This document shows, piece after piece, positions 20,872 to 25,351 of a stretch of 64,000 nucleotides of DNA. The notes beneath the pieces were generated by a model. It saw only the letters and a list, made by a program, of their open reading frames with translations. It was not told the DNA's origin and did not search any database. The first letter of the stretch is position 1; each line of letters opens with the position of its first letter. Source of the DNA: Alphaproteobacteria bacterium. GTDB lineage: Bacteria; Pseudomonadota; Alphaproteobacteria; Bin95. The position numbers and the translations under genes were made by a program. The DNA lies in contig CAXXWS020000002.1 of the NCBI GenBank assembly GCA_963665325.3, forward strand, positions 1,274,694 through 1,338,693, written 5' to 3'.

Positions 20872-20973
20872 ACCGGTTTATGCGGCGGTTGGGCCTGTTC
20901 TACTCGACCGCGTTCGATTATTGTGCCCGCGGTTGCGCAAGATGCCGGCCGGTCCACAGGAGAGTCTGGCGAT

Positions 20974-21978
20974 ATGGTCGATTCCTTACCGGGAATAGCT
21001 CCCTTTTCGGTGTTCGTCGTCGTCGTGCTGGTGTTCGCCGTGGCGCTCGTCTTCATGGGCGTCAAGACGGTGCCGCAGGGCTTCGAGTTCACCGTCGAGC
21101 GTTTCGGGCGCTACACCCGGACGCTTACGCCCGGTCTGCACCTGATCGTGCCCATCGTGGACCGCATCGGCCAGCGCCAGAATGTGATGGAGCAGGTGAC
21201 CGACGTGCCGTCGCAGGAGATCATCACCCGCGACAATGCCATGGTGACTGTGGACGGCGTGGTGTTCTTCCAGATCCTGGACGCGGTGAAAGCGTCCTAC
21301 GAAGTGCGTCGCCTTGAACTCTCGACCCTCAACCTGACGATGACCAACATCCGGACGGTGATGGGCTCGATGGACCTCGATGAGCTGTTGTCGCAGCGCG
21401 ACAAGATCAACGCCGAACTGCTGAAGGTGGTGGACGAGGCGACCGCACCCTGGGGCGTCAAGATCACCCGAATCGAGATCAAGGACATCACGCCGCCCGC
21501 CCAATTGGTGGATGCCATGGCGCGCCAGATGAAGGCGGAGCGGGAAAAGCGCGCAGTGATCCTGGAGGCAGAGGGCGTGCGGCAGGCCGAGATCTTGAAG
21601 GCCGAAGGACAGAAGCAGGCCGCGATCCTGGAAGCGGAGGGCCGGCGGGAGGCTGCGTTCCGGGACGCTGAAGCGCGCGAACGCGAGGCCGAGGCCGAAG
21701 CCCGGGCTACCGAAATGGTCTCGAAAGCCATCGGGGAAGGCAATATCCAGGCGATCAACTATTTCGTCGCCCAGAAATACGTCTCCGCGCTGGAAGGCAT
21801 AGGCAGCGCTCCCAACCAGAAGATCGTGTTGATGCCGCTTGAGGCTTCGGGCGTTATCGGCGCCGTCGCAGGGCTGACGGAAATCGCCAGGGAGGCCTTC
21901 GGTTCCGACGGAGAGGCCGCACCGCCCGCCGCCCGCCGGCGTCGGGGCTCGGTGCCGCCTTCCGGTTCCGGCGCCTGA
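20974..21978 (+). CDS. SPFH/stomatin-family protein (QmcA-like)
   Basis: N-terminal TM, VERFGRY, ITRDNA, LDELLSQRDKIN, QMKAEREKRA. Confidence 0.92.
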   Translation: MVDSLPGIAPFSVFVVVVLVFAVALVFMGVKTVPQGFEFTVERFGRYTRTLTPGLHLIVPIVDRIGQRQNVMEQVTDVPSQEIITRDNAMVTVDGVVFFQILDAVKASYEVRRLELSTLNLTMTNIRTVMGSMDLDELLSQRDKINAELLKVVDEATAPWGVKITRIEIKDITPPAQLVDAMARQMKAEREKRAVILEAEGVRQAEILKAEGQKQAAILEAEGRREAAFRDAEAREREAEAEARATEMVSKAIGEGNIQAINYFVAQKYVSALEGIGSAPNQKIVLMPLEASGVIGAVAGLTEIAREAFGSDGEAAPPAARRRRGSVPPSGSGA

Positions 21979-21988
21979 GGCGGGGCCG

Positions 21989-22474
21989 ATGGAGTCGTTT
22001 GCACTAGAGGACATCTCCTACTGGCACTGGCTGGCCTTCGGCGTATTCCTGATGCTGGTGGAAATCCTGGTTCCGGGCGTCGTCTTCCTCTGGCTGGGAA
22101 TCGCCGCGGTCTTGACCGGCTTGCTGCTTGCTGTCGTGCCGGACACGGGCTGGCAGGCTCAACTGGTCGTTTTCGCCGTTCTGTCGGTAGCGGCAATCTT
22201 CTTCGGGCGCCGCTTTGTGGCTTCGAGGCAGAGGCCGACCGATCATCCGACCCTCAACCGGCGGGGCCGCAGCATGGTCGGCACGCGCGCCATTCTCCGC
22301 GATCCGACCGTCAGCGGTCGCGGCCGGATACGCATCGGGGACACGATGTGGGCGCTCCGCCTGGCATCGCCCGAGGGCGAACTCCCGGCAGACACCGAAG
22401 TGACGGTCGTTGAAGTGGACGGCGTGACGCTCGTCGTCCGCGAAATCCCCGAGGAGGCCGTCGAAGACGGCTAG
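21989..22474 (+). CDS. NfeD-family membrane protein (YbbJ-like)
   Basis: WHWL...EILVPGVVFLWLG, LNRRG, GRIRIGDTMW; partner of SPFH; TAG stop is the end of the repeat. Confidence 0.88.
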   Translation: MESFALEDISYWHWLAFGVFLMLVEILVPGVVFLWLGIAAVLTGLLLAVVPDTGWQAQLVVFAVLSVAAIFFGRRFVASRQRPTDHPTLNRRGRSMVGTRAILRDPTVSGRGRIRIGDTMWALRLASPEGELPADTEVTVVEVDGVTLVVREIPEEAVEDG

Positions 22475-22543
22475 AGTGGAATCCATTCGAATTGAACCGC
22501 AACTGGAACCGAACCCAAAACCGTCACCCCGGCCCCCGAGCCG

Positions 22544-22810
22544 TGTGTGGACGCCTCCCTGGATGCAAGCAGTTTTTTCGGCTTGGTCGGGCCTATGCGG
22601 TCAGGCGGAGTCGTGTGTCCGGTTTCCCTTGTGCGGCACTTGAGTTGCCGCGGGCCAGTATGGAGATACGCGGATCGGGTCCATATCGGGGTCATGCGCT
22701 CGCGGCGCGCCGGCTCAGCCTGGTTTTCCCGATCCCGTCTCATTGACCGTTTGCCCTTACCCCTTGCCTCGGCCTGCCTGCATCCTCCGACGGCTCGCCG
22801 CACCGCCTTC
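22544..22810 (-). ncRNA. putative bridge/seek RNA in the IS1111 3' non-coding end (exact RNA ends unknown)
   Basis: Stem GGAUCGGG/CCCGAUCC (22728-35/22672-79) encloses GAGCCGG and GACCCCG matching the two target strands; a downstream loop has ACACACGA matching the circle junction. Confidence 0.75.
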
Positions 22811-23842
22811 TCAGGCGGCTGCGGGAGCCCGGTAGGTCTCCTTCTTCACGGCCAGCGCCCACAGGATGCGCGCCATGCGATTGGCGAGCGCGACGGCGAC
22901 CAGCTTGCGCTTCCCTGGCTTGCTCGCCAGCAGGCGCGCCAGCCAGGGATCGTTGCACTTGCCCCGGCGGATGGCGTTCTGGATCACCGACATCGCCCCG
23001 ACCACCAGCAGGCGGCGCAGGTCCTTCTGGCCCATCTTCGAGATCTTGCCGAGCCGCGGTTTGCCGGCTGTACTGTGCTGGCGGGGCGTGAGGCCGAGCC
23101 AGGCAGCGAAGTCGCGCCCCTTGCGGAAGGTTTCGAGCGGCGGGGCCAGGGCCTGGAGCGCCAGCGCCGTGACCGGCCCCACCCCCGGCACGGTCATCGC
23201 GCGGGCCGCCTCCTCGTCCTCGCGCGCGGCGGCCCGCAGCGTCCGGTCCAGCTCTCTGACCTTCCCGTCCAGCTCGGCGATCCGTTCCAGCAGCAGTGCC
23301 CCCATCTCGTGCGTCAGCGCCGGCAGAGACGCCCCCTCTTCGCCCTCAAGTGCCCAGGCCAGACGTGCCACATGCGCCGGCCCCTTGGGAGCTACAAGGC
23401 CGAACTCCGCTAGATGGCCCCGCAGCGCGTTGATCGTCTGCGTGCGCTGGCGCACCAGAAGCATGCGCACCCCCAACTGCATCGCCCCCGCCTGGCTCTC
23501 CTCGCTCTTCACCGTCACGAAGCGCATGGTCGGGCGCTGCGCCGCCTCGCAGATCGCCTCCGCGTCCGCCGCGTCGTTCTTCTGCCGCTTCACATAAGGC
23601 TTCACATAAATCGGCGGGATCAGACGAACCTCATGGCCCAGCTTGCCGATCTCGCGGCCCCAGTAATGCGCACCCCCGCACGCCTCCATCGCAACCGTGC
23701 AGCGAGGTTGAGACAACAGAAACGCCAGAACCCGACCCCGCGACAGCTTGCGACGGAACGCCACCGAGCCGTCCGAATACGCGCCGTGCATCTGAAAGCT
23801 GTTCTTCGACAGGTCCACCCCGATGATGCTAACCTCCTTCAT
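22811..23842 (-). CDS. IS110-family DEDD recombinase/transposase
   Basis: IIGVDLSK, VAMEACG, KNDAADAEAI (DEDD), TVPGVGPVTA, GLTPRQHSTAGK (catalytic Ser); intact 343 aa. Confidence 0.96.
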   Translation of the reverse strand: MKEVSIIGVDLSKNSFQMHGAYSDGSVAFRRKLSRGRVLAFLLSQPRCTVAMEACGGAHYWGREIGKLGHEVRLIPPIYVKPYVKRQKNDAADAEAICEAAQRPTMRFVTVKSEESQAGAMQLGVRMLLVRQRTQTINALRGHLAEFGLVAPKGPAHVARLAWALEGEEGASLPALTHEMGALLLERIAELDGKVRELDRTLRAAAREDEEAARAMTVPGVGPVTALALQALAPPLETFRKGRDFAAWLGLTPRQHSTAGKPRLGKISKMGQKDLRRLLVVGAMSVIQNAIRRGKCNDPWLARLLASKPGKRKLVAVALANRMARILWALAVKKETYRAPAAA

Positions 23843-24055
23843 TGGATGCCTCCTTCCCATTGGGGGTTTCAACAACACCACCATGGCACATTGCGATGCC
23901 GTCGGATGGAGGCGTCCACCCTATCGGGGTCCAGAACCGCCTTCGAAATTTGGTGAAGCTCCGGTAGGCTGGACCCCGGATCTCCGCTCCGCTCCGTCCG
24001 GGGTGACAATTGAGGCTGCGCCTTCGACTTCGTTTCAACTCGAACGGACCGTGCT

Positions 24056-25351
24056 CTAGCCGGGCGGTCCCAGGCGGCGCACCCGGATTGCCAGAATTGC
24101 GGCCTCTGCGCCGTAGCCGGCCATCCAGGCGGCTAGTCCGATGACGGCGCCGTTGCCCCCCGGCAGCAACAGGGAGATCGCTGCAACCAGAGTGGCGGCG
24201 AAAACGCGGCCAAGCCCCGAAACCGCGAGCGCGCCTGTAACCCTCGCGCCCGCAAGCATGCCGCGAAAGACTGCCGACAGGCCCCAGAAGGCGGCCATGA
24301 GGAATGCAAACTGCATGGCCGGGGCGCAATAGGCTTCCAGCGCCGGCTCCAGGCCCATGGCGTCGGAAAGGACAAGGCGGTCCAGCGGTGTGTGGAACAG
24401 GAGCAGGGCGACAGCCCCGAAGAACAGCATCTGCTGCCCGGCAAACTTCAGTATCACGCGCCTGTCTTCGATTCGGCGCACGAGCGTCTGGGCGCTTTGC
24501 ACCAGATTGCGCAGCGGACTGAGCATCAGGCCCGCCAGGCCGTATACGATTGCGAACGCGGCGAGCGCCAGGTCGGGATTTGGAAGCCGGCCGAGGAACA
24601 CGCTGATGGCGAAGACCATCCCCATCTCGGCCGAGGTATTCAGCATCAAAGGCCAGGAAAAACGCCATTGCGCTCTCACGGTCGGCGGCGCTTCGCCGTG
24701 TTCGGGCAGTCCGGCATAGATGCGCCGGGCGAAGAAGACCGCTACCGCAGTCTCGCAAAACATGGCGAAGACCAGCGCACCGGCGCCGACTGCAGCTCCC
24801 TCCAGCACGAGCGGCAGTACGACGAGCGAGCCGGCGAGCGAGCCCAGCCGCGCGACAGTCGCCCAGGTGATGAAGATCGTCTTCTGTCCCATCATCAGCA
24901 GGCCGAAGGCGACCGACCGGCAGATCAGGATCGGGGCGCTGAGCGACAACAGGAAGGTCGCCGTCTTCGCCTCCGCGACCGCGGCGTCGCTGATTCCGAA
25001 CAGCGTCTGGAACGCGAAATCGCCGATGGGCGTGAAGGCCAGCACCTGCGCGACGGCCCAGGGGACGGCCACGATGACGCCCATGAACCGCAGTAGATGT
25101 GCGAGAGCGCGGCGGCTGCGGAGGTAGGAAAGCGTCAGGAGCGAGCAGACTTCCGTGCCGCTGGCGATGGAATAGTAGAGCGTGAAGGCGCTGTGAAAGG
25201 CCGCGAGCACGATGCTGCTGTCATCCATGCGCGCGAGGAAAGCGTTGATGACCGTCTTCGAGATCATGTTGAGTTCGGTCATGAAAATGAGCGGAACGAA
25301 AAACCGGTAGCAGGTTCCTAAAGTGAGTCCCCCTGCTGCCGCCCCGCTCAT
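24056..25351 (-). CDS. MATE/ANKH-like multi-pass membrane transporter
   Basis: two repeated halves (FFVPLIF...INAFLARM / FSWPLML...ISVFLGRL), about 12 hydrophobic segments. Confidence 0.6.
   Translation of the reverse strand: MSGAAAGGLTLGTCYRFFVPLIFMTELNMISKTVINAFLARMDDSSIVLAAFHSAFTLYYSIASGTEVCSLLTLSYLRSRRALAHLLRFMGVIVAVPWAVAQVLAFTPIGDFAFQTLFGISDAAVAEAKTATFLLSLSAPILICRSVAFGLLMMGQKTIFITWATVARLGSLAGSLVVLPLVLEGAAVGAGALVFAMFCETAVAVFFARRIYAGLPEHGEAPPTVRAQWRFSWPLMLNTSAEMGMVFAISVFLGRLPNPDLALAAFAIVYGLAGLMLSPLRNLVQSAQTLVRRIEDRRVILKFAGQQMLFFGAVALLLFHTPLDRLVLSDAMGLEPALEAYCAPAMQFAFLMAAFWGLSAVFRGMLAGARVTGALAVSGLGRVFAATLVAAISLLLPGGNGAVIGLAAWMAGYGAEAAILAIRVRRLGPPG

Follow-up and report, generated by a model that had tools for sequence, protein, structure and literature searches.

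The closest described counterparts of the element analysed here are IS621 and the seekRNA-encoding insertion sequences of the IS1111 group. Each IS621 loop consists of a stem, a 5' strand with the LTG, a stem loop and a 3' strand with the RTG; the handshake guides occupy bridge RNA positions 81-82 and 166-167, directly 3' of RTG or RDG plus core (Hiraizumi et al., 2024, PMC11208158; PMC13626964, 2026). Handshake pairing that forms after strand exchange promotes recombination, while pairing before exchange blocks it (PMC11208158; PMC13626964), and the wild-type arrangement provides one pair before exchange and three after (PMC13626964). A role of the handshake in setting the bias between insertion and excision is already published for IS621 (PMC13626964), and the directional idea put forward in an earlier, sequence-only reading of the present locus is the same principle carried over to the sister group. 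Among seekRNAs of the IS1111 group, the top-strand match comes first, 5' of its bottom-strand counterpart, an order opposite to that in IS110 (Siddiquee et al., 2024, PMC11187229), and the group as a whole is described as having short terminal extensions and subterminal inverted repeats 7-17 bp long (PMC11208160). The IS1111 seekRNA sections of PMC11187229 are silent on bases that follow the overlap and agree with the element's own end or with the exchanged product, and no description of handshake bases in IS1111-type RNAs came up in a limited literature search; supplements may hold IS1111 covariation maps.

The window, that is, the whole 64,000-nt stretch of alphaproteobacterial DNA that was analysed, carries an IS1111-type insertion sequence of the IS110 family (Table 1). 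A search of its own genome with 22480-23990 showed that the two flanks (22480-22543 and 23925-23990) adjoin at many other places with a 2-nt overlap, and uninterrupted target sites reading ...GGACCC-CG-GCTCGGGGGCC were found; the core is therefore CG, and the element has the boundaries given in the table. The uninterrupted sites define the target halves as LT = GGACCC and RT = GCTCGG. On the element strand, the left junction reads GGACCC-CG-ATAGGGTGGACGCCTCC and the right junction GGAGGCGTCCACACA-CG-GCTCGGGG, and comparison of the flanks with the uninterrupted sites indicates site-specific insertion with no target duplication beyond the shared core. The transposase matches PF01548 DEDD_Tnp_IS110 (E 3.8e-13, 49.9 bits, cut-off 29) and PF02371 Transposase_20 (E 3.7e-21, 75.8 bits, cut-off 21.3), and its homologues align with the product of 22811-23842 from residue 1. 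The 12-nt subterminal repeats lie 5 nt in from the left end and 3 nt in from the right end, and 267 nt of non-coding DNA, containing both putative RNA loops, extend from the stop codon (22811) to 22544. DEDD and C-terminal transposase domains, subterminal repeats and a long non-coding right end, all characteristic of IS110/IS1111 elements, are thus present together, and the 12-nt repeats with the short left end and 267-nt right end give the layout of the IS1111 group. As described for the seekRNAs of ISEc11, ISPa11 and ISKpn4, the RNA is encoded downstream of the transposase in an element with subterminal inverted repeats, the order of the matches is the same, and the two matches overlap at the insertion point (PMC11187229). 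Two further near-identical copies (L002 and L003; 99-100% identity) sit in other flanks of the same genome, and the element is an ordinary active IS1111-type insertion sequence within a dispersed repeat.

The target itself is a dispersed repeat of about 128 nt, represented in the window by 22480-22543 and 23925-23990 and present in many copies in the genome (loci L006-L029). Each repeat copy offers two candidate sites with a common left half, GGACCC-CG-GCTCGG and GGACCC-CG-GATCTCC, the latter form being the site filled by the relative L039 in another genome. A short target site inside a dispersed intergenic repeat, with many copies per genome, is also described for IS621 in E. coli and for ISPpu9 in Pseudomonas putida (PMC12288879); the repeat family and the host are different there, and the comparison is one of description, not of sequence. 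The same genome contains a second IS1111-type element (L004, contig C5:113347-114745; 73% identical DNA) with different guides, whose programmed target is AATAA-TG-CTCCACG and whose right junction reads TC where the RNA specifies TG. Beyond the right end of the element, at lower coordinates, the window carries two ORFs of 351 and 161 aa (20923-22474, plus strand), which by the look of their sequence may encode a band-7/SPFH-type protein and a small membrane partner.

Table 1. Coordinates of the element, its gene, its junctions and the predicted RNA loops within the window.
Feature	Position	Strand	Basis or remark
IS1111-type IS110-family insertion sequence	22544-23924	-	Flanking core copies excluded; boundaries by flank contiguity elsewhere in the genome
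DEDD transposase / bridge recombinase gene	22811-23842	-	343 aa; stop codon in span; Pfam
Left subterminal inverted repeat GTGGACGCCTCC	23908-23919	-	12-nt inverted repeat with 22547-22558
Right subterminal inverted repeat GGAGGCGTCCAC	22547-22558	-	Partner of 23908-23919
Left-junction core CG	23925-23926	-	LT GACCC at 23931-23927; RD ATA at 23924-23922
Right-junction core CG	22542-22543	-	LD ACACA at 22548-22544; RT GCTC at 22541-22538
Putative target-binding loop	22672-22736	-	Consensus fold of 40 relatives, pair counts, guide-junction matches
Target loop, outer stem	22736-22728 with 22679-22672	-	
Target loop, CCA/UGG helix	22723-22721 with 22683-22681	-	
Target loop, 5' strand GG-CUGAGC(RTG)-CG-GC	22720-22709	-	
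Target loop, inner hairpin	22708-22696	-	
Target loop, 3' strand AU-GACCC(LTG)-CG-AUA	22695-22684	-	
Target loop, handshake-position bases AUA	22684-22686	-	Match RD ATA; first two comparable to IS621 A81/U82
Putative donor-binding loop	22605-22671	-	Consensus fold, pair counts, single-sequence fold
Donor loop, 5' GCG	22671-22669	-	
Donor loop, RDG region	22668-22658	-	
Donor loop, inner stem and hairpin	22658-22619	-	
Donor loop, LDG ACACA	22618-22614	-	
Donor loop, core CG	22613-22612	-	
Donor loop, ACUC	22611-22608	-	
Donor loop, CGC	22607-22605	-	
Donor loop, handshake-position bases ACUC	22608-22611	-	Against RT GCTC, 3/4

The structure of the RNA was derived from an alignment of relatives and not from a single-sequence fold. 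The consensus fold, obtained from 40 distinct right ends, contains 22 pairs, 15 of them with compensatory changes, and an extended structure of 29 pairs is paired in 93.7% of cells; column shuffles give 82.5%, and sliding the partner by 1-3 columns gives 27-42%. In the relatives' alignment, helices 2, 3 and 4, which support the target loop, are paired in 92.9-98.3% of cells, each with two-sided changes. The loops did not emerge when the whole 267-nt non-coding region was folded by itself (z -1.56), and an Rfam scan of 21500-25000 returned none of the curated families at E up to 1. In each loop, the 3' strand is predicted to run from a 2-nt linker through a 5-nt guide, the 2-nt core and a few unpaired bases into the next helix, a plan that the donor loop (GG-ACACA-CG-ACUC, then CGC) shares with the target loop. 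Each loop carries one guide per strand; LTG, RTG and LDG agree with their DNA, and RDG (CUCCAU against ATAGGG), read by eye, is weak in the 22544-23924 element.

In the element and its relatives alike, RTG, the top-strand guide, lies 5' of LTG, the bottom-strand guide. Between the core and the following helix stand the bases at 22686-22685 and 22611-22610, at the place of the handshake guides in IS621, a placement that results from the flipped orientation of IS1111 RNAs on the DNA. In the predicted fold, these extra bases come immediately after guide plus core on the 3' strand of both loops and correspond in position to the handshake guides of IS621, the succession of outer stem, 5' guide, stem loop, 3' guide with core and extra bases, and a further stem being that of the IS621 TBL and DBL; the element-frame LTG and LDG correspond to the RTG and RDG of IS621, and the IS1111 RNA, as its guide order indicates, meets its DNA turned by 180 degrees. 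The likeness extends to base identity, with the target-loop AU opposite donor A/T in both systems (A6'T7' in the flipped frame with AU here; dA6/dT7 with A81/U82 in IS621). The differences are that the carriers here are LTG and LDG in the element frame, pairing with the bottom strand, that the core is CG in the element and CT in IS621, and that the element has 3 + 4 bases free, 6 of the 7 matching, whereas IS621 has 2 + 2.

The sequence-only reading had claimed that both 3'-strand guides run past the core to match the junctions produced by recombination, and both matches are borne out. In the target loop the agreement is complete (10/10): plus-strand 22684-22693 (tatcggggtc) equals 23922-23931, so that on the minus strand the RNA reads GACCC-CG-AUA and the left junction GACCC-CG-ATA. 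In the donor loop it holds at 10 of 11 positions, plus-strand 22608-22618 (gagtcgtgtgt) against 22538-22548 (gagccgtgtgt), or ACACA-CG-A-CUC in the RNA against ACACA-CG-G-CTC at the right junction. Of each match, the mechanism itself requires the initial 7 nt (a 5-nt guide and the 2-nt core), and the question is limited to the bases beyond the core. The single donor-loop mismatch concerns the base next to the core, an A that fails to match RT1 (G) and matches the element's own donor RD1 (A); the base adjoining the core is the most important handshake position in IS621. Under uniform base use, the three extra target-loop matches have a chance probability of 1/64, and at least 3 of 4 donor-loop matches one of 0.051. 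Since neither figure is compelling alone and the element was chosen because the match was present, a selection that affects both its chance estimates and its pair counts, the test needed relatives. Counted from sequence matches alone, the element has, with two bases per loop, one pair before exchange and three after, as in IS621; with all seven bases the counts are one before and six after, the highest among 58 combinations in an element selected for its match.

Our overall reading, to which we give a probability of roughly 0.6, is that the locus is an IS1111-type element with a 3' non-coding two-loop bridge (seek) RNA whose IS621-like handshake bases favour insertion. The target-loop AUA agrees in sense with the opening bases of the left end (RD ATA), and the donor-loop ACUC is set against RT GCTC, the start of the right target flank. 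As long as no strand has been exchanged, the extra bases would mostly be unable to pair with the DNA in their loop; once the strand bound by the 3'-strand guides, the bottom strand in the element's own frame, has been exchanged, they could pair with the incoming partner strand, as the handshake bases of IS621 pair with partner DNA after the first strand exchange. The gain in pairs would pull the reaction toward insertion and disfavour excision, an effect shown for IS621 and proposed here for the element. We infer the pairing itself, the strand order and the effect on direction from comparison of the sequences, and exchange of the bottom strand first from homology of position.

A competing account, which we hold to be possible but clearly less probable, is that the bases after the core are a conserved linker or helix, read by the protein or needed for folding, and that no handshake pairing takes place. 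The AU would then equal the invariant left-end AT by accident, and ACUC would resemble GCTC by accident; the naive chance estimate for the donor loop, obtained in an element selected for its match, is in keeping with this. The evidence bearing on the choice between this account and handshake pairing comes largely from related loci, of which 80 were taken from species genomes and 80 from metagenomes, with transposases 47-90% identical. Guides were located in 136 loci by alignment to conserved anchors, independently of any junction match, and the 5'-strand guide was read by direct search for the best pairing window; IS5075 and IS4321 (L191 and L192; 39% identical transposases) were left out because their target-loop guide register needs an uninterrupted target. 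LDG with core is an exact copy of the right-end tail with its core in 120/136 loci, the left end was located in 118/136 and begins with AT in 113 of these 118, and LTG lies within one mismatch of the target in 85/118. For the permutation test, 126 loci were collapsed to 27 target clusters, a conservative but crude sample in which single-linkage target clustering chained 57 loci into one cluster, and a sister-pair test used 36 close-relative pairs with different RT1-2, which are partly non-independent. In a plasmid element read by eye (L193), the target loop matches (AUA against RD ATG) and the donor loop does not (GC against RT AA).

Several further features of the relatives were recorded. Four copies with the same RNA (L032, L033, L035, L040) differ in that the RTG-specified right flank (TTCGG) is present only in L035 and L040; the right flanks of L032 and L033 start with ATG, as does the element's own left end, and the LT match is also missing from L033. 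These two loci resemble the donor-like 'half-match' insertions of IS621 described in a 2026 preprint (10.64898/2026.08.31.748434). The core dinucleotide differs between the left and right junctions in L049, L051, L053, L076 and L082 (TG/CG) and in L093 and L097 (CG/GG), a difference that unlike cores in target and donor would produce if each junction arose via a heteroduplex. In L054, L052 and the AG-core clade L060, L071 and L077, the RTG base opposite the first core position is often non-complementary (CA or CC opposite CG; UA opposite AG), and the LTG side keeps the exact core.

For the two core-adjacent bases of each loop, 58 distinct combinations from 80 loci gave a mean of 1.14 pairs before exchange and 2.79 after. 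Post-exchange pairs outnumbered pre-exchange pairs in 50 combinations, equalled them in 7 and fell below them in 1, and the commonest state was one pair before and three after (21 of 58); this asymmetry speaks against coincidence on a conserved scaffold. In the target loop, the two bases are AT in 71 of 134 loci, AC in 27, GT in 11, TT in 10 and others in 15, with A first in 108/134 and U second in 92/134. The AU cannot covary, because the left end starts with AT almost throughout the relatives (the 113/118 above), and its agreement with RD may be scaffold conservation; with RD1-2 invariant, a covariation test is impossible for this loop, a circumstance that favours the scaffold account. Nor are the target-loop bases depleted for pairing with their own RT (8, 10 and 9 of 36, against 6.9, 6.1 and 7.0 expected). 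The argument for handshake pairing in this loop comes from position and identity together, AU opposite A6'T7', which agree with the experimentally tested handshake of IS621.

The donor loop allows a more direct comparison. Its bases after the core are AC in 57 and GC in 50 of 134 loci, so that 107/134 carry one of two forms, as conserved scaffold would predict, and the default AC does not follow the target. In the 36 unique loci among 40, RT is matched at positions 1-4 in 15, 19, 14 and 9 cases, where permutation gives means of 10.3, 14.6, 9.8 and 8.3. Over the 27 target clusters, the association of positions 1 and 2 with RT1-2 persists (p 0.027, 0.005 and 0.013 with representatives drawn at random three times, or 0.005-0.03), which speaks against mere coincidence. 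Among the 36 sister pairs differing in RT1-2, the fit to the own target exceeds the swapped fit in 8, is lower in 0 and is tied in 28; the ties, in which RT1-2 changed and the donor-loop handshake bases remained as they were, are what a fixed scaffold would give, whereas the differences, always toward the own target, speak against it. The corresponding sign test (p 0.004) is too generous, because the 8 informative contrasts represent, on our reading, roughly 4-5 separate events. Individual agreements between donor loop and RT include GG-GG (L152, L153), AA-AA (L126), T-T (L050) and CGCG-CGCG (L060, L077), and the base next to the core matches the own RD1 instead of RT1 in 23/36 relatives, as it does in the element. 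On this comparison, the core-adjacent pair of the donor loop appears to track the right target flank weakly, and the alignments lend moderate family-wide support to two handshake bases per loop. The handshake-like character proposed in the sequence-only reading is supported for an IS621-equivalent position and a pre/post asymmetry of two bases, and not for length beyond two bases.

The proposal that the match is longer than in IS621 finds no family-wide support, positions 3 onward carrying no family signal. Tracking of RD3 by target-loop position 3 was rejected, the two being equal in only 4/36: RD3 is A in the small clade of the element (the element itself, L031 and L036, all with A in the loop) and in L072 (with U), and A at target-loop position 3 stands alongside G at RD3 in 7 loci. 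A donor guide running on for four bases was likewise rejected as a family feature on association, permutation and pairing data; once targets are collapsed, RT is not associated with donor-loop position 3 (p 0.28-0.46) or position 4 (p 1.0). Pairing of donor-loop positions 3-5 with the 5' GCG holds in 81.7% of cells and includes GC-to-UA changes at one pair, and in relatives these positions are usually, as the alignment suggests, a scaffold helix; together with G at position 4 in 133/134 loci, this pairing is in keeping with the scaffold account.

The element departs from this pattern by a C at 22608, a position that is G in every other locus; the C is carried by all three genome copies, and three copies with the same RNA at different sites indicate that this RNA variant has transposed. 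After ACUC the element reads CGC, as does L031, and in its predicted fold the 5' GCG pairs with this CGC (extension positions 5-7), leaving ACUC unpaired; the thermodynamic folds are not better than shuffles (z -0.6 for the element, and -0.9). The 3-4-nt length seen here is best read as a probable lineage-specific lengthening of a 2-nt family feature.

The guide on the opposite strand behaves differently. The 5'-strand guide extends one base onto its own target in 28/53 relatives, against 17.1 expected (p 0.0006, relatedness uncorrected), and the LTG of IS621 is likewise described as pairing past the core, from 14* to 6* (PMC11208158; PMC13626964). Handshake bases after RTG, in element-frame naming, were considered and rejected, as the GC at 22710-22709 cannot pair with LD ..CA. 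Of the 53 family members compared, 8 and 19 have post-RTG bases that pair with LD, and 28 and 17 have ones that pair with their own LT, a pattern in which these bases behave, as far as sequence comparison can tell, as a continuation of the cognate guide and not as handshake bases.

A last alternative, which we consider very improbable, is that LTG-core-AUA and LDG-core-CUC are excision guides that recognise the integrated junctions and promote excision or single-strand copying out: the matches are indeed to junctions as present in the genome, IS621 excision complexes bind junction DNAs across both loops (PMC13626964) and a preprint reports partial matches driving excision (10.64898/2026.08.31.748434), but in IS621 pre-exchange handshake pairing inhibits both directions and the insertion-favouring natural configuration disfavours excision (PMC13626964), and the family signal here comprises two bases only, which is too short for recognition.

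Within the preferred reading of insertion-favouring handshake bases, a bolder extension may be formulated, although we regard it as unlikely. IS1111-type elements would run the IS621 reaction on the opposite strand, the one antisense to the transposase gene being cut and exchanged first, and in the lineage of this element the handshake would have lengthened from 2 + 2 to 3 + 4 bases through a shift of the scaffold helix (the G-to-C change), producing a near-irreversible insertion lock. If this were true, handshake length would be an evolvable dial for insertion stability.

Handshake guides are a known RNA-level control of direction in bridge recombination and matter for lasting designed insertions. 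An IS1111 branch with a handshake at the equivalent place, carried by the guides for the other strand, would supply a rule for programming seekRNA-type systems, and the equivalent placement predicts which strand exchanges first. By the same token, the lone element whose match is longer lends itself to asking whether more handshake pairs strengthen the bias toward insertion.
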